From a virus: a stretch of 64,000 bases of DNA. The stretch is taken from IMG/VR virus record IMGVR_UViG_3300017917_001562, positions 32,001 through 96,000 of that record. The stretch is one strand, 5' to 3'. A program made the translations under genes and the position numbers. The notes beneath the pieces are model-generated. The model did no database searches and was not told the DNA's origin. It saw only the letters and a list, made by a program, of their open reading frames with translations. Below are positions 2,431 to 56,186 of the stretch, in pieces. Within the stretch, counting starts at the first letter, position 1; every line of letters begins with the position of its first letter.

Positions 2431-3906
2431 ATGAATATTCTAGGTATCAGCGCAGGATTTCACGATGCGGCCGCAGCTGTGATAAATGACAACGGCGATA
2501 TTTTATTTGCCGCACACAGCGAAAGATACAGCAAATATAAACACGACAGACACATCAATCAGGGATTAATTGATGATGTACTGCGCTTCAATCCTAAAGT
2601 TGTTGCATACTACGAAAATCCTTTGCAAAAACAATTAAGACAACTATACGCAGGACAAGGATTTGACCTACACAATTGGCGTCTAAGTCAGGTACTTACA
2701 AATGAAACTGGTGGCTGGTTTAAAGGTTTAAAAACCCGCAGTTACAATCATCATCTTAGTCATGCAGCTGCAGGATTTCAAACTAGTCCATTTGACCGCG
2801 CTACAGTAGTAGTAATAGACGCAATAGGTGAATGGGACACTATTAGTATTTGGGCCGCAGAATATAAAAATGGTCGTGCCAAATATCGTAAATTATGGAG
2901 TCAGCGTTATCCACACAGCATAGGTTTATTTTATACAGCAATGACTAAACGAGTTGGTCTTAAACCCTTAGATGAAGAATATATTTTAATGGGAATGGCC
3001 GCATTAGGTAAAGATATAGATAGAAATTTAATGCAAAGTGTTTTAGTAGAAGACGAATACAAAATTAAATTTAGAAACAATTTGCATTTGGGCGTAGACG
3101 AAACTTTTCTAAGAGCAGCCGATCCAATGGACATTGCAGCTAGCACACAAAGTCTTACTGAAGACTTAATACTTAATGTTATTAAAAGAGCGCAAGACTT
3201 TAAATACAGTTCAAATCTGGTGTACATGGGCGGTGTAGCTCTTAATTGTACAGCAAATAGATTGTTAGGAAATTATTTTGATGACATATGGATTATGCCT
3301 AATCCTGGTGATGCTGGAAGTAGTCTTGGCGCTGCAGCTTTGGCTTATGGGGGTAGAATTAACTTTAACACTGCTTTTCTTGGGCACTGTATTAGTGGTC
3401 CTTACCCTGTTGCTAATCTTCTTGATGAGTTACTGGATAATAAAATCGTTGGAGTCGCTTCGGGACGAGCAGAGTTCGGTCCCAGGGCCCTCGGAAACAG
3501 AAGTCTTTTGGCAGACCCTCGAGGATACGAAATCAAAGATAGAGTTAATGGGATTAAGCGTAGACAGATGTTTAGGCCGTTTGCGCCAATTATTCTCGAA
3601 GAACTAGTTAACGACTATTTCGAAATGCCACCAGGCTGGCACAACAGTCGCTACATGCAAGTTGTGGCAAAATGCCGAAGACCAGATTTATTTCCTGCTA
3701 TCGTTCACGCAGACGGAACCAGCAGAGTCCAAACAGTGCCTAATAACGGTTCAGGTATTCGAAAGCTATTAGAACAATGGCTAATAATGACAGACTGTCC
3801 TATGTTACTCAATACTAGTTTGAATATTCGTGGTGAACCAATGGTAAATGACAGGGCAGACGCTGATAGATTCGAAAAGCTATACAAAGTCAAAGTTTGC
3901 TCATGA
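2431..3906 (+). CDS. Carbamoyltransferase (NodU/CmcH/TobZ family)
   Basis: HDAAAA, HHLSHAA, GGVALN, EFGPRALGNRS, RPFAP and NTSLN motifs. Confidence 0.92.
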   Translation: MNILGISAGFHDAAAAVINDNGDILFAAHSERYSKYKHDRHINQGLIDDVLRFNPKVVAYYENPLQKQLRQLYAGQGFDLHNWRLSQVLTNETGGWFKGLKTRSYNHHLSHAAAGFQTSPFDRATVVVIDAIGEWDTISIWAAEYKNGRAKYRKLWSQRYPHSIGLFYTAMTKRVGLKPLDEEYILMGMAALGKDIDRNLMQSVLVEDEYKIKFRNNLHLGVDETFLRAADPMDIAASTQSLTEDLILNVIKRAQDFKYSSNLVYMGGVALNCTANRLLGNYFDDIWIMPNPGDAGSSLGAAALAYGGRINFNTAFLGHCISGPYPVANLLDELLDNKIVGVASGRAEFGPRALGNRSLLADPRGYEIKDRVNGIKRRQMFRPFAPIILEELVNDYFEMPPGWHNSRYMQVVAKCRRPDLFPAIVHADGTSRVQTVPNNGSGIRKLLEQWLIMTDCPMLLNTSLNIRGEPMVNDRADADRFEKLYKVKVCS

Positions 3907-4106
3907 CCGAATCAAATAAAAGAAGTTTAATTAAAACGATAAGTTGGCGCTTGACAGGATCCAGTGCAACCTTTATAATAACATATTTAATAGCTGGCGA
4001 TTTTGCAATCGCTGGCACTGTTGCTGTGATACAAATTATAGCTAATACTTTGCTTTATTATGTACACGAACGACTATGGAATAAAATCAATTGGGGCAGA
4101 AAGTGA
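3903..4106 (+). CDS. Small membrane protein (DUF2061-like)
   Basis: KTISWR...YYVHERLW pattern. Confidence 0.7.
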   Translation: MTESNKRSLIKTISWRLTGSSATFIITYLIAGDFAIAGTVAVIQIIANTLLYYVHERLWNKINWGRK

Positions 4107-4540
4107 TTAAAAAAATATTAATTATGGGACTACCAGGTAGTGGTAAAAGTACACTAGCAGAACCTTTTGCTAAAGCAATTAACGGCGTTTGGCTCAATGC
4201 CGACAAAGTTAGAACAGAATACGATGATTGGGATTTTAGTCCTGAGGGACGAATTCGTCAGGCACTGCGTATGAAATATTTGGCAGATGGTGTTGTTAAA
4301 GCGGGAAAGATTGCTGTAGCTGATTTTGTTTGCCCTACAGAAAAAGCTCGCCAAGAATTTGCCGCAGACTATGTAGTATGGATGGATACTATTAAAGAAG
4401 GAAGATTTGAAGATACAAACAAGATGTTTGAACCTCCTAGCCACTGTGATTATCATGTAAGCGAATGGTTTAATGATACTCATGATCAACTTTTAAACAT
4501 GCTGATTGCTTACCATAAACTGAAAATTAAAAATGTTTGA
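4103..4540 (+). CDS. cysC: Adenylylsulfate kinase-like P-loop kinase
   Basis: GLPGSGKST, NADKVR, DFSPEGR and FEPP motifs. Confidence 0.75.
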   Translation: MIKKILIMGLPGSGKSTLAEPFAKAINGVWLNADKVRTEYDDWDFSPEGRIRQALRMKYLADGVVKAGKIAVADFVCPTEKARQEFAADYVVWMDTIKEGRFEDTNKMFEPPSHCDYHVSEWFNDTHDQLLNMLIAYHKLKIKNV

Positions 4541-15647: not shown

Positions 15648-15871
15648 GACCACCTTAATATAAACCAACTCATATCTTTACGAGCATCCGGATAATCTAA
15701 AAAATAAAAATTAATTAAATCGTGTGTAATAGTATTACCATCACTGTGATATTGATTAGTAATGTAATGTGGACAGTTTTTCTTTGCCCATTGAATAGCA
15801 CTATACAAATCAAGTTTACTACGGTCTACTGTTATGTAGTTATCAGTAATCTTCATATGCCAGTTGTCCAT
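15644..15871 (-). CDS. Array member (ends SWFILRWS)
   Basis: Family motif and junction repeat. Confidence 0.75.
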   Translation of the reverse strand: MDNWHMKITDNYITVDRSKLDLYSAIQWAKKNCPHYITNQYHSDGNTITHDLINFYFLDYPDARKDMSWFILRWS

Positions 15872-16083
15872 CAACTCCACCTTAACAAAAATGCTGTATA
15901 ATCTTCTTCATGCTCAAATACCGCAGTAACAAACTTGTTGTCTTTGTCCTCGACCATTTTGCAGCCAAACTCCTGTAACCATTTTTTTCGGCTTTCTTCT
16001 AGTCCCAACGACTGAACACCAAGTGTTTCACGCCACGCACGACGAAACATTGAATGATGCTTTTTTAAATCTACTTCAATCAT
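15871..16083 (-). CDS. Array member (ends TAFLLRWS)
   Basis: Family motif. Confidence 0.75.
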   Translation of the reverse strand: MIEVDLKKHHSMFRRAWRETLGVQSLGLEESRKKWLQEFGCKMVEDKDNKFVTAVFEHEEDYTAFLLRWS

Positions 16084-16138
16084 GACCACCTCAATGCTAG
16101 CATTGTAGCATGATTTGCATATTTTCGTCTAACAAATT

Positions 16139-16221
16139 GATAAATAAAAATGCGAGTCGCGATGCGTCAACATCCACCCGCCCTAACAGTTGAAAAGGAA
16201 CTATCAGCATGAATATTTATT
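16139..16221 (+). promoter_or_regulatory. TAAATA late-type promoter plus structured leader of endonuclease gene
   Basis: Same architecture as 49839-49918, with compensatory stem changes. Confidence 0.65.
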
Positions 16222-16583
16222 CCCCGGCACGACCCCCATCTGGGTATTATGTTTACGCATATATAAGATCAAAAGATTCGAAAACAGGTAAAGCAGGGAC
16301 TCCGTATTACATTGGTAAAGGCAAGGGCAATCGAGCCACTCGACGTCACGGAAAAAACCCTATTCCAGATTTTGATTTCATAGCAATATGTGAAGAAAAT
16401 TTAACTGAAATTGGTGCATTAGCGATTGAACGATTCCTTATACGTGTTTGGGGGAGAAAAGATATCGGTACCGGAATTTTGTTAAACAGAACAGACGGCG
16501 GGGATGGGACATCGGGTAGATCAGCAGAGTCAATCTGCACCCAAACTGCGCCACCAAGGTCTACCCATCTTGGATCATTATGA
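16209..16583 (+). CDS. GIY-YIG-like homing endonuclease, probably C-terminally truncated
   Basis: YYVYAY...YYIGKG, E-rich helix, [10 protein letters not shown]; after ~16520 it reads into the antisense of the host gene. Confidence 0.7.
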
Positions 16584-16731
16584 TCTACAATTAAAGGGCC
16601 CACAGGCCACCTTACTTTGATAACAACACCAGGAACAAACCTCCACCAAAGTTTTTGCCAAATGTTTAATCCGCAAGGCAAATATCTGCCAGACGGCAAT
16701 TGAAATAAACTTTTAATTTCCCACTTAGCCA

Positions 16732-17133
16732 TTATGAATATTTCAATGCTATCATTACGGCATCTTGCTCATTGTTAGTTGCTACAAACACTTTATCCTC
16801 ACCGCCTAGTTCGTTTACTGTCCATTCCCAATCAGTAGAAGGCTCACACATAACACGATGAAACTCCCAAACAGCATTTTCACCTAAAGCACGAGCAGGC
16901 CAAAAATAATGTTTTGTATCTTCTCGCACGGTCCACCCAAACGGTTGTTCTAAGTTAAAAAACTTGTTAGGATCAACGATAACAATATGTTTAAAATTTC
17001 TAAAAATATCTTTGATACGAGTAGCACGGACATTAACGGTTTGTTCATACCATGCCTTATACTCACGCTCTGCTTTTGTATAACCAGTTGTGCGAGTAAG
17101 ATACCAATCTTTGATATTGTCGAATAAAATCAT
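16732..17133 (-). CDS. Array member (ends VMIALKYS)
   Basis: EQDAVMIALKYS. Confidence 0.75.
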   Translation of the reverse strand: MILFDNIKDWYLTRTTGYTKAEREYKAWYEQTVNVRATRIKDIFRNFKHIVIVDPNKFFNLEQPFGWTVREDTKHYFWPARALGENAVWEFHRVMCEPSTDWEWTVNELGGEDKVFVATNNEQDAVMIALKYS

Positions 17134-31802: not shown

Positions 31803-32837
31803 TTATTTACTGATAGTATCTCGCTCATGAATGGTATTATATTGAGTGTTAACGCGAACAAATGTGGTGCATTTTGGCAATTGTTTAAGGGTTTCGGCGC
31901 CTACATACGAGCAGGTACTCCGAATGCCACCTAAAATATTTTGAACTACAGTACCTACGTCTCCTTTATGGGGGATACTAACTGTTCGGCCTTCGCTCGA
32001 TCTATAATCTTTTAATCCGCCGAAATGTTTTTCATTTGCAGTATCACTGCTCATCCCATAAAATATAACCTTACCATCTAAAATTTCGCCCCCGCCTTGG
32101 TTTGTTCCTGCTAACATTGAACCAAGCATGACAAAGTCCGCGCCTGCGCCAAATGCTTTAGCCACATCGCCTGGGCAAGTGCAACCGCCATCAGCAATAA
32201 TATGGGCATTGAGGCCATGAGCCGCATCAGCGCACTCAATAATCGCACTAAGTTGCGGGTAGCCAACCCCAGTTTGTATCCTAGTTGTACATACCGATCC
32301 CGGCCCGATTCCGACTTTAACAATGTCTGCTCCTCGTAAAATAAGTTCTTGTGTCATGTCTGCGGTAACAACATTACCAGCAATGATAGTTTTATCTGGA
32401 AAGGCTTCACGCACTGTTGCTACATAGTCGGCAAATCTTTCCTGATAACCGTTGGCAACATCAATACAAATAAATTTAACTTCGGGGTAGGTATTAACAA
32501 TCAACTTTAACCGAGTAAAATCACTATCACTGGTACCAGTACTGACAGCAAAGTATTTTCCACCAAACTGACCTACTAGATCATATAAATCAGTTTCGTT
32601 ATAATTTTTAACAAGGCATGTAAACATTTGATGCTTATACAATGCCTTGGCCATATCAAGGGTTCCTACCCCGTCCATGTTACTGGCCATGATAGGAACT
32701 CCCTGCCACTCATATCGACTGTGTTTAAATCGATAAATTTTGGTTAGATCAACTTGTTTCCTGCTGTGTAGAGTACTGCGCTTGGGCCGTATCAGCACAT
32801 CGCGAAAATCAAGTTTAACTTCGTCTTCAATTCTCAT
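31803..32837 (-). CDS. guaC: GMP reductase
   Basis: [26 protein letters not shown] and FYGMSS motifs; no CBS domains. Confidence 0.93.
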
Positions 32838-49205: not shown

Positions 49206-49509
49206 AAGTTTGTAATATTAACTTAATTAGGCCAGTACTGTCAATGGTTGCTAACAATACATAATTGCCAAATATACCAAAACTACCGCGGCTGTAAGCA
49301 CAGCCTGCACTGATTGTACAACCAATAATAAAGGCCGCATAAAGTGGGATAAATGGTAAGTTGGGAACTGTGATAGCATAGGTAAGACTGCAACCAATGC
49401 TGATTGCCCATGCTATCATTTCAAACACAAATCTTACTTTATGACTGCGCCAATCATTAACAATAAATTCTTTGGCACCAGCCCACCAGCTTTTAACGCT
49501 TTCGGTCAA
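49192..49509 (-). CDS. Small membrane protein
   Basis: Three hydrophobic segments. Confidence 0.65.
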   Translation of the reverse strand: MTESVKSWWAGAKEFIVNDWRSHKVRFVFEMIAWAISIGCSLTYAITVPNLPFIPLYAAFIIGCTISAGCAYSRGSFGIFGNYVLLATIDSTGLIKLILQTYVLH

Positions 49510-49778
49510 AGAGTTTTTCCTACAGTTTCAAGAATAGTATTCAATTCATCGTGGTCGCGATTGGTTTCGCCTAGCTTGGCTTTATGTGCAATCTTAATTG
49601 CTTTTTTCAGTGTGGCCGGTTTAATTTCTAGTTCTTCGGCAATGGCCTTAATGGTTTCATTAAGACCCTCGTTAAGGGTATCAACTTCTTGAAGCACGGT
49701 CATGCCTTCTGTAATTAATTGCGTCAATTTGATTTTGGCTTCGCCGTTGAAGCTGCGTGAGTATCCAGAGTCTGACAT
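49506..49778 (-). CDS. T4 DsbA/GapR-like dsDNA-binding protein
   Basis: Short helical protein, IKAIAEELEIKP--LKKAIK. Confidence 0.55.
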   Translation of the reverse strand: MSDSGYSRSFNGEAKIKLTQLITEGMTVLQEVDTLNEGLNETIKAIAEELEIKPATLKKAIKIAHKAKLGETNRDHDELNTILETVGKTL

Positions 49779-49838
49779 ATTAGATCCTTTATAAAAATGT
49801 TATTGTAAATTATTGAAAAGTAAAAATCAATTTAATTG

Positions 49839-49918
49839 GATAAATATTAGTGTAGTTCGCGGAGCGGGAACTCCCAACTACTCTATGATTGAAAGGAATC
49901 ACAGCATGAATATTTATT
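49839..49918 (+). promoter_or_regulatory. TAAATA promoter plus structured leader of endonuclease gene
   Basis: Stems GTAGTT/AACTAC, GGAG/CTCC and TGATT/AATCA. Confidence 0.65.
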
Positions 49919-50496
49919 TTAAACCCACCTACCTGTATATTAAACAACACAACATAACAGGATTGAAATACTTTGGGAAAACAGTTAAACTTGATGTGTT
50001 TAAGTATAAAGGATCGGGTAAACATTGGTCGAGACATTTAAAGAAATACGGTAATGATGTTACTACTGTTTGGCACCAACTTTTTCACAATAAAGAAGAA
50101 TTAGTTGAATTTGCTACTAAGTTTTCTATAGATAACGACATTGTGAATTCCCCGCAGTGGGCCAACTTAAAAATAGAAGATGGGTTATGGGGTGGTGGGG
50201 TAAAAGGTATAAAACTAAAGCCCATGTCTCTGGAACATAAAGCAAAGTTATCAGAGTCGGTTAAAAATGCATACGAGAAAAAAGGTTGCAAAATAAAAGA
50301 CAGAACTCCCCTTGTTATCAAAACTAAAGTTAAAAAAGTAGGATGGACTTGGGAAAAGGAAAGTAAAGAAAGGCACTCATTGCGTCAATTGGGAATTCCA
50401 AAAAGACGAATGTGTTGTGTACATTGCAAAAAAGAAGGTAGCATAGCTAATATTCTTCAATGGCACGGTGATAAATGTAAAATGAACCCTGTTTAG
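49906..50496 (+). CDS. Seg/GIY-YIG-like homing endonuclease
   Basis: YLYIKQHNITGLKYFGKT, YKGSG-W, ANL--EDG, CVHC...WH. Confidence 0.8.
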   Translation: MNIYFKPTYLYIKQHNITGLKYFGKTVKLDVFKYKGSGKHWSRHLKKYGNDVTTVWHQLFHNKEELVEFATKFSIDNDIVNSPQWANLKIEDGLWGGGVKGIKLKPMSLEHKAKLSESVKNAYEKKGCKIKDRTPLVIKTKVKKVGWTWEKESKERHSLRQLGIPKRRMCCVHCKKEGSIANILQWHGDKCKMNPV

Positions 50497-50560
50497 TATA
50501 ACAAGTAGCGAATTTGTTATACTAGGCGCGGGTTCCCGCCTACCCGGTCCTAAGGCCAAG
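50494..50560. terminator. Structured intergenic region between convergent genes (terminator or ncRNA)
   Basis: TAGTATAACAA/TTGTTATACTA and TAGGCG/CGCCTA inverted repeats. Confidence 0.5.
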
Positions 50561-52117: not shown

Positions 52118-52546
52118 TTATTCTGCCTTTTTATTCTTGTCTTTTTCAGTTATGGGTCCGCCTGTGATCCAAGCTCTACAACTTCTTGCACCTGCACATT
52201 TGAAGTGCAAAAAGTTACAATAACCAATGTCAGCAATATTTATGCTGGCATTAGCATCTATGTTTGGTTCATCACCTTTGATACCATTGGCTATGCATTC
52301 GCGCATACTGTCGCTGACATCAAAGGCCGCACAGTTTGCACACTGCATGGTTTTTGCAATAGCTTCTGTAACTTTAAATCCTTTTGCAGCTTTTTTCCAA
52401 TAGTCGCCGGGATTATCAGGGTTAGCAGGACCATAATTATATTCATCTATGGCCTTTTGTCTATTTTTAAGATTAATATCTATGTTATGAGTAGCTACAG
52501 GACAATTCTTTGTAGCTGCTTCCATGATCTGTATATAATTACGCAT
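52118..52546 (-). CDS. Cys-rich hypothetical protein
   Basis: CANC...GYC---FKC---RSC--W; [10 protein letters not shown]-terminus. Confidence 0.7.
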
Positions 52547-55500
52547 ATTTACGACCTTTGCGAGGTAAACTACCAATTGGACTGGTAGCGTTTTCGTCAC
52601 CAATGGTACTAGCACGACCAGTAAAGTCACTTATCCTAACTTCTTTTAATTTAACTTCCTTAATCTTAGGAATGCCAAATGCTCGTTGTGCTTCTAATAC
52701 AGCAGCAGGACCTTGCGATTCTGTTATGTACCAGCCTTGGCTATCTTGTGTCATTTTAAAATCATTGCGTAAACTTGCAGTGTCTGTGGCTTTGGGTGTA
52801 AAATAAAATCTTGTTTCTACTACACCTTGTGGTGCTTGTTGTGCTTGAACAGCCTGTTGAGGATTTTGACGGAGCATTTGTGGGGCCATTGTAGCTATGT
52901 TTTGAGCATTAGGATTAGGTGCAGTTACTGCATTTACAACTTGGTTAATTAAACTATCATGTTGTTCTAGCTCTTGATAAACATGTTCGTTTTCTTGATC
53001 AAGTTGATCTAATTTTGGTTTTACACTATTAGCTAAAGCTGAATTTAAATTATCAATCTCTGCATTTAATTTTTCAATTTGTGCTGTATAATCTTTAACT
53101 TGACCAACTCGAGCCTGTGCTGTTTTTGCAGCCGCTTCTGCATCTTTAAACTGTTGTTCTAATTTTTCAATTGCTTTAGCATCAACAGTTTCACCTTGCT
53201 GAACAGCCGCAATGGCCTTTTCTAGTTCTGCAATTTTATCAGCTGATACACCGGTGCCCTGTTTGTTTTGCATACGCTGTTCTAAGTCAGCGATCTGACG
53301 CTCTAGTGTAGCAGTAGCTTCGGGATCAATGTCAGGTGTGGCCTTAAGTTGATCCAGTTGTTGAGCTAGTGTTTGTAACTGAGCTTTACTGGCCTGTTGC
53401 TTTACTTTTTCTTTTTCTAATTCGCCGCGATGCTTGGTAAGTTCCTTGCTAGTAATTTCACCTTGTTCAGCACCAATGTCTGCTCGTTCACCTGCAGCCT
53501 GCAACTCTGATTTTAATTCTTTATTATAAGCCTTGGTCTTTTCTAATTCTTTGAACAATGCCACAGCCACTTGTTGTTCGGGAGGTACACCACTCAGTCT
53601 TTGTCCTTGTACAAAATTCATCATCTTTTGATAATCTTGTGAAGGGGAAGCTTTGGCTTCGTTGGTTTTCTTTTTATTGCCCCAGTTTGCTGCACCTTTT
53701 TTACGGCACTGTACTAAGGCACCTGATGCATAAGCACTTGGCCATACTTTGTAACGGCTTTTAACTTTGTGATAGCAAGCGTCTTGTTTTTCAGCTAAGA
53801 TTAAATTACTAAATGCTGGACCACCACACTCTGGACAAGTTTGTTGAGCTTCTGCCACATCTTGTTGTCTACGATGAAGTGTAACTTTATGTTCACCAGG
53901 CGTTTCTTTCCTCCATTTTTGTGCGGCACCTAAACTATCAAACTTCGGACCTGGTTGAAACTCTCCGTTTTTGTCTTTGGTATGACCACGATAGTAATGT
54001 TCTTCATCGTATGCATCTGCGTTAAATCCTTCCGCTACACCTTGCTGACCTGTTACAGCCTGCAATAGTGCTCTTGCAACTACACGATCTTTTTCCTGTT
54101 CGTCGTTGTCTAGTTCAGAATAACTAATTTTCATTAGTTTAGCTCTTTGCTGTAGTTTAGCTTCAAGTTTTCCCGCTTGACGAAGTTTTTCGGTATCGTC
54201 AAATTGATCAGGGTCTTGAACAAATCTCAGTGCTGTGGTATTCCAACCTTTGTGAATTGCGTCTGCAATAGCTTCAATGTCTGTTACACCAGCATCAATC
54301 ATTTTTTTAGCATAAGCAGCAGATTGAAGATTGGCTTGCCATCCAAAATTGTTGCCAGGTGTGCTACGACCATAACCATATGCTTGGTCCAAGGCTGCAT
54401 CGCTGACAGCAGCTAACTGCTGTATAGATAAACTATTAGCGTTTTCTGTCATTGGGCTTTCTACTGGTTCTGCTGAAGTAACTGATATAATTATTCCACG
54501 CCTCTTAAACTTCTTTATTGTTTTGGCTATTGCTTCTTCTTTTGAATCTGCTTTAGTTTTGGTAGAACTATGAATTGGTTGTCCAACCTGTGTATTCCAT
54601 TGAAAGTTAACTTTCCAAATTGGGGCAGTGTCTACAGCCACAGTGGGTTTAGCTTGAAGCAATGCATCTTGTTGTTTTGGTGGCAACGATAAAAACTCAG
54701 TTAGTTTCATCTTCTTGCCATTAATTGTTACAAGGTTCTGTCCACCACCCGCAGTGCCACCTTCGTATTTGATCCACTCCAGTGCAGGGCTTTTTACAAT
54801 AAAACTGGTTAAGAAGAATGGTTTTGGATCGTTTCGGTTAGGCGCAAGATAAGATCTTCTGGCAGGATATGTCATTGCGTCAATATGTGTAAACTTCATG
54901 CCGTTTCGTGCAAGAATGCTTGATAGTGTATCGTAGTGGTTTTGTTGGACTTTACTAAAAGTATATGTGTCAGGTTTGCCAGAATACTGTGTTGCACCAG
55001 GACTGTATATGCTGCCTTCCGCCACACCTTGCTCGAACGATTTGAACACAGAACGAGCAACTGCTTTAACCTGTTCTGGAGAAAGTTTTTTACCTAGTTG
55101 CTCCTGGGCTTGTTGATAGATGTCTTTGATATCTGGATTGTTGAAATCGTCTTCGTAGTCCCAATATGTAAAGGACACTTTGTTACCATCTACATCAAGC
55201 ACATACACCATTTGATCTAAATCGTAATCTTGCTTGACAATGGCAACGCCTTCCGCCACACCTTGCGTCAGGAATGATTGCAAAGCGTCGGATCTGCTAG
55301 GATGTTTTAGTTTTCGAAGTGCCTTTGCTTCAATCTGTCTAATTCTTTCGTTAGATACTCCTAATTTTCTGGCAACATCGGCTAATGACATATCATCATA
55401 GAATCTCATGTCGATGACTGTTTTTTCAGTATCAGTTAAAGTGGACATCTGTTTGGCCATCACACGCTGCAATTCTGCTTGGTCATACTTGTCGTTGGGA

Positions 55501-56186
55501 TCATAAGGTTCGTCGTATTTTGTATCATATCGATCGGCATTGTGCACCGGATCTTGCGGGTCCAGTGTAGGCATCTTATTTTTTGCACCCTTATATGTTG
55601 CGCCGTTTGGATTGTATCGTGATATCTGTTGATTAGGATTTGCTTCCGCCACACCTTCATTGGATTTTTTCTTTGTAGCAACATTGATCGCCGCACCACT
55701 ACGCTCAGGATTTGGGTCTTCTCTGCGCTTTTTAGCAGCCGCATACTTACGGCCTTTTTTGCCTAGTGCATGTGCCTTGGCCTGTGGTAAACATTTTGGT
55801 TTACCTTCACTGCTATCGCCTCTAGCACAACTACCACGAATTTCGCCATCAGGTCCAAAACGAACCCACTTTTCTTTAAACCACTTGCGTAGATTTTCTG
55901 TAACAGGTGCTGACGAGTCTGGTTCTAAATCATTTGTACGGTCACCGCGGTAGTTTTCTAAATTGTTGACAATTTCATCAACAGCCATATCAACATCACT
56001 CATGCTGTGAATGTCATCTGCTTCCTCAGCATAATCAATAATAGCATCACCCACTACTTCATGCCCATAACGAGTAATTGCTTCGGGATATTTTTGTTGT
56101 AAGCCGTTAAACAATATCTCAGCCAAATCAATGGGACTGATATTTTCAAATAGTTTATTGTTATTATATAAATCGTTTAAAAACAT
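52539..56186 (-). CDS. Large modular protein, probable capsid-internal polyprotein with sigma70 region 4 module and coiled coil
   Basis: Five (Q/E)(G/D)VAE linkers; [14 protein letters not shown] motif. Confidence 0.75.
53848..55658 (-). repeat. Five copies of 17-bp linker CAAGGTGTGGCGGAAGG (QGVAEG)
   Basis: + strand positions 53848, 54028, 55015, 55249, 55642; 19 bp identical between 55014 and 55248. Confidence 0.9.

Follow-up and report, generated by a model that had tools for sequence, protein, structure and literature searches.

The two structured elements found upstream of two divergent endonuclease genes in this viral DNA are members of a large undescribed family of cassettes, about 90 bases long, which stand before many unrelated homing-endonuclease genes of uncultured giant phages of the T4 type. 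Their stems covary, and the pattern of base changes indicates a conserved RNA fold on the strand opposite to the nuclease gene. The reading that we favour, tentatively and by analogy with RNA-OUT of IS10, is that this is a portable cassette with face-to-face late promoters, in which an outward antisense RNA would control the nuclease mRNA.

The window analysed is a stretch of 64,000 nucleotides (positions 32,001 to 96,000) of IMG/VR record IMGVR_UViG_3300017917_001562. The full record is 108.6 kb long and has a CheckV completeness of 31%. The family-B DNA polymerase that it encodes shares about 50% identity with its counterparts in the jumbo phages Phosso and Atu_ph07, and the record is therefore taken to be a fragment of a T4-superfamily jumbo phage of about 350 kb.

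An initial annotation of the window, made from its letters, described two copies of the element. Both are present where it placed them, copy A at 16139-16221 and copy B at 49839-49918, both on the plus strand and with the sequences as it wrote them, and a single covariance model (R1, built from 150 other copies) matches both, with 93 bits for copy A (E = 6e-17) and 86.5 bits for copy B (E = 1.6e-15). No third match to R1 was found in the window or in the whole 108.6-kb record. The two copies close with the same exact 17-mer, CAGCATGAATATTTATT, which occurs in the window only at 16205-16221 and 49902-49918. Both nuclease genes are plus-strand reading frames amid minus-strand genes, and so are indeed antisense to their neighbours, as the annotation had it. 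The features of the two copies are collected in Table 1.

Table 1. Features of the two cassette copies and their surroundings, in window coordinates
Feature	Coordinates	Strand	Evidence and remarks
Copy A, forward late-promoter motif ATAAATA	16140..16146	+	G at 16139; motif depleted in record, virion structural genes behind motif
Copy A, hairpin P2	16152..16181	n.a.	Sense GCGAGT-CGC-GATG-CGTCAA-CATC-C-ACCCGC; covariation
Copy A, hairpin P3'	16183..16207	-	RNAfold, RNAalifold; 9 bp, two of these G·U
Copy A, reverse-complement ATAAATA	16214..16220	-	Codons 2-4 of nuclease gene; candidate outward (antisense) late promoter
Copy A, predicted antisense RNA	16139..16208	-	GCUG, P3', P2' and U-rich tail AUUUUUAUUUAUC; predicted from sequence and folding
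Nuclease gene A	16209..16583	+	124 aa; GIY-YIG-like catalytic domain only
Copy A, outward sigma-70-like promoter	16102..16131	-	TAGACG-18-TACAAT, TG ahead of -10
Copy B, forward late-promoter motif ATAAATA	49840..49846	+	
Copy B, hairpin P2	49852..49881	n.a.	GTAGTT-CGC-GGAG-CGGGAA-CTCC-C-AACTAC
Copy B, hairpin P3'	49883..49904	-	Loop is Shine-Dalgarno complement; RNAfold
Copy B, reverse-complement ATAAATA	49911..49917	-	Codons 2-4; candidate outward late promoter
Nuclease gene B	49906..50496	+	196 aa; Seg-like homing endonuclease; PHROG, tblastn, hhalign
Copy B, outward sigma-70-like promoter	49802..49830	-	TTGATT-17-TACAAT, then Shine-Dalgarno site
Insertion with gene B and cassette	~49800..50497	n.a.	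Empty-site comparison

A covariance-model search for relatives had been proposed in the initial annotation, and relatives are numerous: the cassette is present in at least 230 IMG/VR contigs. A 5' search pattern, consisting of the promoter and the first hairpin, matched at least 118 contigs, and a 3' 16-mer matched at least 117; the upstream hairpins are also present in nearly all of the 3' 16-mer matches listed. Three jumbo-phage genomes (329-361 kb, 90-100% complete, two of them with terminal repeats) contain 9, 13 and 16 copies detected by R1. Bacterial and archaeal genomes (596 Gb) contain the pattern at chance level only: of 23 matches one is real, and the contig that carries it, a small one, was binned with a MAG of the Flavobacteriaceae.

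Rfam 15, the other comparison that had been proposed, has no family that matches anywhere in the window at gathering thresholds, and gave nothing that overlaps either copy even at E ≤ 10. Among cultured phages (50,697 records) there was no match by megablast of both loci or by blastn of a consensus-like copy, and R1 detected none in S-SRM01, B23 and PVA23, three cultured phages with homologous nuclease genes. No published description of the cassette was found outside the candidate tables of a catalogue of 10,006 viral structured-RNA candidates (PMC10690425), among which the motif may occur unnamed. It is the RNA family itself that is new; control by a late promoter and hairpin, and one antisense RNA, are already known at homing-endonuclease genes. 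A ribozyme or riboswitch was considered and rejected, there being no family match and no conserved core.

Some copies depart from the common arrangement. One IMG/VR contig (L114, approximately 3163-3345, minus strand) carries a tandem truncated duplicate of the 5' half of the cassette, from the promoter to the P2 loop, 91 nt before a complete copy, which suggests a recombination breakpoint inside P2. A few copies (contigs L156, L159, L165, L216 and L280) have GTCAACAAAAATG in place of the forward ATAAATA, and these retain both hairpins and the A-run that corresponds to the antisense U-tail. Upstream of the homologous GIY-YIG gene in Synechococcus phage S-SRM01 (L237, 2380-2500) there is a cassette-like GATAAATAATAGTG-CTCTAATG without P2, followed by a terminator-like hairpin and a second TATAAATA; this region may be related to the cassette, distantly or in a reduced form.

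The genes that follow the cassette are of several kinds. When 150 downstream reading frames were compared with Pfam, the domains found were NUMOD3 (51), HNH (13), GIY-YIG (12), HNH_3 (7), SegE_GIY-YIG (6), HNH_5 (6), the I-TevI DNA-binding domain (4) and TnsA-like (2). The same cassette is thus common to unrelated nuclease folds, namely GIY-YIG, HNH, HNH_3, SegE-like and TnsA-like. One of the suggestions of the initial annotation was a mobile family that carries different nuclease cargo, and it is borne out by this tally and by the empty-site alleles described below. With a nuclease domain, and with presence or absence at a conserved site, the genes appear from their sequences to be free-standing homing endonuclease genes. 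A conserved motif after the nuclease stop codons was looked for, and none was found.

Both genes in the window had been called nucleases. For gene B this is supported by matches to PHROG homing-endonuclease families and, in tblastn, to genes annotated as Seg-like in Vibrio phages; a phmmer search of family B against the PDB gave one weak S-layer match only (E = 0.67). Gene A had no match in Pfam, and phmmer found no match in the PDB for a full-length relative of it. A relative of 210 amino acids with a NUMOD3 tail is 63% identical to gene A over the catalytic part. An AlphaFold model of gene A has a pLDDT of about 90 over residues 1-80, and the top PDB matches of the model are GIY-YIG domains, although the matches are weak: the best, to the N-terminal domain of UvrC, has a probability of 0.96 and an E value of 0.035. 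Families A and B are themselves homologous, distantly (hhalign 97%). Gene A is without the NUMOD3 DNA-binding tail of its relatives of about 210 amino acids, and its 3' half is shared with a 128-aa minus-strand reading frame (16346-16732); the gene may be in decay.

The secondary structure was examined in two alignments. The first, A2, consists of 150 copies with mutual identity below 88%, aligned by sequence only, and is the source of R1. The second, A3, consists of 96 distinct copies chosen by the 3' 16-mer alone, so that the stems are unselected. In A2, 95% of the cells in the outer stem of P2 are paired, and 99% of those in the inner stem, with double compensatory changes at every pair. 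In A3 paired cells amount to 89%, against 61% in shuffles and 27-38% in slid-partner controls, and double changes occur at 16/16 pairs. The proposal of a conserved, covarying structured element is therefore confirmed on copies whose stems played no part in their selection. Within the window, the stems of the two copies differ in sequence and yet pair, as had been noted, and the one mismatch reported for copy A is A16155·C16178.

The finer features listed in the initial annotation fared less evenly. The Shine-Dalgarno site does lie in the P3 loop in nearly all copies, but the family as a whole does not keep the CGNNAA loop. The CGC bulge is not entirely a bulge, since its middle base pairs with a 3' C; read on the antisense strand this pair is G-C in 33, A-U in two and G·U in two of 37 copies.

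Read on the antisense strand, the layout is ATAAATA, 5 nt, GCUG, hairpin P3', one unpaired base, hairpin P2' and a U-rich tail. P3' has 9 bp and a loop complementary to the Shine-Dalgarno site, while P2' has 12-14 bp, with two single bulged G that flank a G-C pair which itself covaries. The U-rich tail is complementary to the forward promoter. Of the 8 positions after P2', at least 5 are U in 141/150 copies (94%), and a weaker tail is present, CCUAUUUAU, in about 12% of copies (18/174 when counted by spacer class, 23/150 by tail). A terminator scan of the window copies did not call the bulged P2', and when each window copy was folded as a single strand together with its promoter flanks, the fold was not better than that of shuffles (z = 0.27 and -1.49).

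The strand to which the fold belongs can be read from its imperfect pairs. At the nine solid pairs of P2, cells that are not Watson-Crick on the sense strand are divided between A·C or C·A and G·U in the ratio 45:0 in A2 and 20:1 in A3, and at the five real pairs of P3 the ratio is 61:1. An A·C on the sense strand is a G·U on the antisense strand, which indicates that the fold belongs to the strand opposite to the nuclease gene. RNAfold agrees: the core is more stable on the antisense strand in 149/150 copies, with means of -19.1 kcal/mol against -12.3 kcal/mol for the sense strand (about 6.7 better). For copy A the values are -20.9 (antisense) and -9.2 kcal/mol (sense), and for copy B -19.8 and -14.5 kcal/mol. 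On its antisense strand the mismatch at 16155/16178 in copy A becomes a G·U within a 12-bp P2 stem that has two bulged G, and P3' has the loop CCUUUUC, complementary to the Shine-Dalgarno site; P3 of copy A has 4-5 bp only when read on the sense strand, with the Shine-Dalgarno site within the loop. For a set of 37 copies RNAalifold predicts 17 pairs on the antisense strand, comprising both hairpins, against 11 on the sense strand, in P2 only. One of the antisense G·U pairs is invariant (37/37 copies). The asymmetry between strands is equal at loci with co-oriented and with opposed neighbours.

The sequence GATAAATA is to judge from its letters a T4-type late promoter, which the initial annotation did not recognise, the T4 late promoter being TATAAATA (PMC3014915). 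The record contains 17 copies of ATAAATA, against a mean of 64.5 for permuted 7-mers, and the reading frames that start 5-20 nt after an ATAAATA encode virion structural proteins. A strict test of ATAAATA upstream of reading-frame starts, with a criterion that proved too narrow, gave 2/17; a looser test gave 4/17 against 8.4%, which is marginal (p = 0.05). The late-promoter reading therefore rests on the depletion of the motif, on the structural genes behind it and on what is known of T4. TATTTAT is absent from the interior of nuclease reading frames (0/1157 windows). The avoidance of ATAAATA and its complement outside promoter positions suggests that the bare 7-mer is enough to act as a signal.

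The TATTTAT found in codons 2-4 of the nuclease genes is the reverse complement of ATAAATA. Among 69 copies selected by their 5' end only, 52 have TATTTA in the 30 nt that follow CAGY, compared with 0.4% of windows taken from the bodies of reading frames, and in 46 of these 52 it is 4-6 nt after CAGY. It is also present in 38/38 copies of the three jumbo-phage genomes, which are an unselected sample. Its offset from the start codon is +3, +4, +5, +13 or +14 nt, so that it falls in all three reading frames and yields M-x-I-Y, M-I-F-I or M-Y-L-Q. The initial annotation had stated that the first codons, MNIY, are kept. This holds for the DNA but not for the protein, as the place of TATTTAT is fixed across three frames. 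The GIY motif of GIY-YIG enzymes was considered as the cause of MNIY, and was rejected as the sole one because HNH genes keep MNIY and the motif shifts frame. Both ATAAATA motifs are nearly invariant, and their variation is too small for a test of covariation or of promoter function.

The two late-promoter motifs face each other, about 70 bp apart. In the antisense reading, the forward motif would drive the nuclease mRNA, the 5'UTR of which would start at the base of P2. The reverse motif, in codons 2-4, would fire outward and give an antisense RNA starting with GCUG; the position of this motif within the gene would explain the shared MNIY. Transcription is expected to start about 6 bases after each motif, as in T4. 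In copy A this would place the start of the mRNA near G16152 and that of the antisense RNA at the complement of C16208, and the sense and antisense RNAs would then overlap across the whole nuclease 5'UTR. The antisense RNA would fold into the adjacent hairpins P3' and P2', followed by the U-rich tail, and would limit the translation or the stability of the nuclease mRNA. Pairing between the two RNAs may begin as a loop-loop contact at the Shine-Dalgarno site.

Complementarity of the predicted antisense RNA extends over all of the 5'UTR with its Shine-Dalgarno site, and ends immediately before the AUG. A bulged upper stem is typical of antisense regulators. The reading is favoured by this complementarity, by the Shine-Dalgarno complement placed in a loop and by the bulged stem. 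It is favoured also by the strand bias, by the fixed place of the reverse motif, by the U-rich tail, by the equal asymmetry with either orientation of the neighbours and by the precedent of the antisense RNA CfrI, described below. The family, its structure, the strand bias, the fixed placement of the motifs and the insertion are computed or observed; the firing of both motifs, the starts and ends of the transcripts and the repression are inferred. Several points count against the antisense reading: the two promoters would work at one and the same stage of infection, which suggests no obvious regulatory logic; both motifs vary little; P2' is bulged and was not called as a terminator; some copies have a weaker tail; at some loci an outward gene follows closely; and the window copies, folded with their promoter flanks, are no better than shuffles.

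Empty-site alleles, which the initial annotation had suggested be tabulated, were found for copy B in seven related contigs, which have neither gene B nor the cassette. Compared with the window, the DNA polymerase of these contigs is 88-91% identical and the radical-SAM protein 75-77%. At the empty sites no more than 97 bp separate the radical-SAM gene from dsbA, and this spacer contains a perfect promoter, TTGACT-17-TATAAT, directly before dsbA. In the window about 690 bp has been inserted directly after the -10 box of that promoter, and a new sigma-70-like promoter and Shine-Dalgarno site stand after the cassette (Table 1), leading to the dsbA-like gene at 49506-49778. The original dsbA promoter is still recognisable beside the 3' end of gene B (window 50497-50560 compared with 4617-4712 of contig L243), in a degraded form that reads TATACT in place of TATAAT and no longer has the -35 box. 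In one of the related contigs (L240) the radical-SAM and dsbA genes occur twice, inverted (2913-4389 forward and 6026-4550 reverse), representing either a large inverted repeat or an assembly fold-back. Elsewhere in the window, at 52539-56186 on the minus strand, a reading frame of 1215 amino acids has a Sigma70 region 4 domain at residues 247-295, which is unusual for so long a phage protein.

The main rival, in our view less probable than not, is a second reading in which the hairpins of the antisense strand serve the neighbouring host gene. The cassette would then be a leader, or a PeSL-like terminator and promoter unit, that restores or insulates expression of a gene separated by the insertion from its own promoter. 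Such a unit would begin with the outward late promoter, continue with the two hairpins, which would stabilise or terminate the transcript, and with the U-tract, and in many cases add an early promoter of the sigma-70 type and a Shine-Dalgarno site. There are precedents, in that PeSLs are described as composite terminator/promoter motifs of T4-like phages (PMC4122927). Most cassettes lie antisense inside host transcription units, with both neighbours on the opposite strand at 53 loci and on the same strand at 20, and the displaced and degraded dsbA promoter, with its replacement after the cassette, also speaks for this reading. Outward sigma-70-like promoters matching at least 10/12 positions are found at 33/174 loci, compared with 2/174 in the control orientation. 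At 31/164 loci fewer than 45 nt lie between the cassette and the start of the next outward gene, and so close a gene needs transcription through the element. However, the fold and TATTTA are kept equally well at the 20 co-oriented loci, where there is no outward host gene. The sigma-70 part is variable and is missing from most copies of the family; those of the two window copies match at 9/12 positions, the one beside copy A preceding the minus-strand gene at 15871-16089. A terminator would moreover damage closely abutting genes, and service to the host gene leaves unexplained why the hairpins overlap exactly with the Shine-Dalgarno site and 5'UTR of the nuclease. The host-gene and antisense readings are compatible with each other, and the close outward genes at 31/164 loci imply that the antisense RNA may often read on rather than end short.

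The initial annotation had offered, as one of two possibilities, a cis-regulatory RNA for translational autoregulation. In a leader of this kind on the sense strand, a 5'-terminal P2 would stabilise the late mRNA, the P3 loop would present the Shine-Dalgarno site, and a repressor might bind. It is true that P2 starts where the late transcript should start, that the Shine-Dalgarno site occupies the P3 loop so regularly, that the bulges and junction bases are conserved, and that P2 pairs well on the sense strand too, in 95-99% of cells. Nevertheless, we consider a sense leader improbable, because on the sense strand A·C is common and G·U almost absent, the core folds less stably in nearly every copy, and P3 has only 3-5 bp and is not predicted by RNAalifold. 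The cassette also precedes unrelated nuclease folds, which makes autoregulation by one encoded protein unlikely.

We give no better a chance to occlusion of the T4 type, in which the AUAAAUA of read-through transcripts would pair with the UAUUUAU of codons 2-4 (a pairing designated P1), close a three-way junction and block initiation, while late transcripts, starting inside P1, would escape. This mechanism is established for T4 gene e, I-TevI and Aeh1 mobE (PMC3014915), and P1 is part of the minimum-free-energy fold of both window copies and can pair in 85% of cells. But P1 consists of 7 A-U pairs and leaves both the Shine-Dalgarno site (in the loop) and the AUG (in the junction) uncovered, and it has no covariation, its arms both being nearly invariant. 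Mostly there is no co-oriented upstream gene from which read-through could come (53 opposed against 20 same-strand loci), and there is none for either copy in the window; the antisense bias of P2 and P3 also remains unexplained by occlusion.

Most improbable of all is a hairpin of bottom-strand single-stranded DNA, tolerant of G·T and acting as a recombination, priming or nicking signal in homing: the strand bias fits bottom-strand DNA as well as antisense RNA, and the element marks a conserved end of the mobile unit, but no nuclease family is common to all copies that could recognise such a signal, the promoter motifs at fixed distances on either side point to transcription, and we know of no precedent among T4-type homing endonuclease genes. 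The sense leader, occlusion and the DNA hairpin all agree less closely with the strand bias and with the orientation of the genes than the antisense and host-gene readings do.

In IS10/Tn10 a promoter faces a second promoter inside the 5' end of the gene, and the outward RNA-OUT is a short stable stem-loop complementary to the initiation region of RNA-IN; the outward promoter can also read into neighbouring genes. The cassette resembles IS10 in having a mobile-element gene with facing promoters, the outward one inside the 5' end, although here this arrangement is a prediction from the DNA. It differs in that the promoters are phage late-promoter motifs and not sigma-70 promoters, the predicted RNA folds into two hairpins, the overlap takes in all of the 5'UTR without the AUG, and the genes are homing endonucleases in a lytic phage.

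Control by a T4-type late promoter and hairpin has been described for gene e, I-TevI, I-TevII/III, Aeh1 mobE and T4 segB (PMC3014915). The cassette has in common with these a nuclease gene with a TATAAATA-type late promoter just upstream, complementary to the start of the gene. In the T4-type cases it is read-through transcripts from co-oriented genes whose Shine-Dalgarno site or AUG is hidden in the hairpin, whereas in the cassette the complement lies in codons 2-4, most of the genes run antisense to the genes beside them, and the opposite strand is the one for which the covarying stems are optimised.

Two further systems of T4-like phages should be compared. CfrI of the T4-like cyanophage S-PM2 is an antisense RNA to a homing-endonuclease gene, the expression of which was confirmed experimentally; it is about 225 nt long, links the nuclease gene to psbA, and is known from one locus type (PMC2984593, PMC5931967). 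The likeness to the cassette lies in an antisense RNA, here predicted, opposite a free-standing homing-endonuclease gene in a T4-like phage; we detected no similarity in sequence or structure. PeSLs are short conserved units of a stem-loop and an early promoter that border inserted genes in variable regions of T4-like phages, and are thought to move with, or to mediate, gene shuffling (PMC2839356, PMC4122927). Unlike the cassette, PeSLs are not linked to nucleases, have neither paired late-promoter motifs nor the two-hairpin fold, and have stems that are simple G/C clamps.

The antisense reading can be extended further, to a form that we regard as unlikely. The cassette would then be a universal plug-in governor, a new RNA family in which the outward late promoter in the first codons supplies many unrelated nuclease families with a structured antisense RNA like a type I antitoxin; its invariant G·U and conserved bulged G would be read by a dedicated factor of the phage or the host, and its 90 bp would serve as a homology block for the swapping of cargo.

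As selfish cutters of DNA, homing endonucleases shape the genomes of phages, and to our knowledge the means by which their expression is kept harmless is known for a few T4 genes only. Here one 90-bp module is common to hundreds of nuclease genes, from at least five families, in a large group of uncultured giant phages, and it provides a simple marker by which nuclease genes that stand alone, and the sites of their insertion, can be found in metagenomes. Should the antisense RNA prove real, it would represent a new family of structured RNAs and the first widespread antisense control system for homing endonucleases, with a regulatory signal placed in the first codons that would explain why unrelated enzymes start with MNIY.
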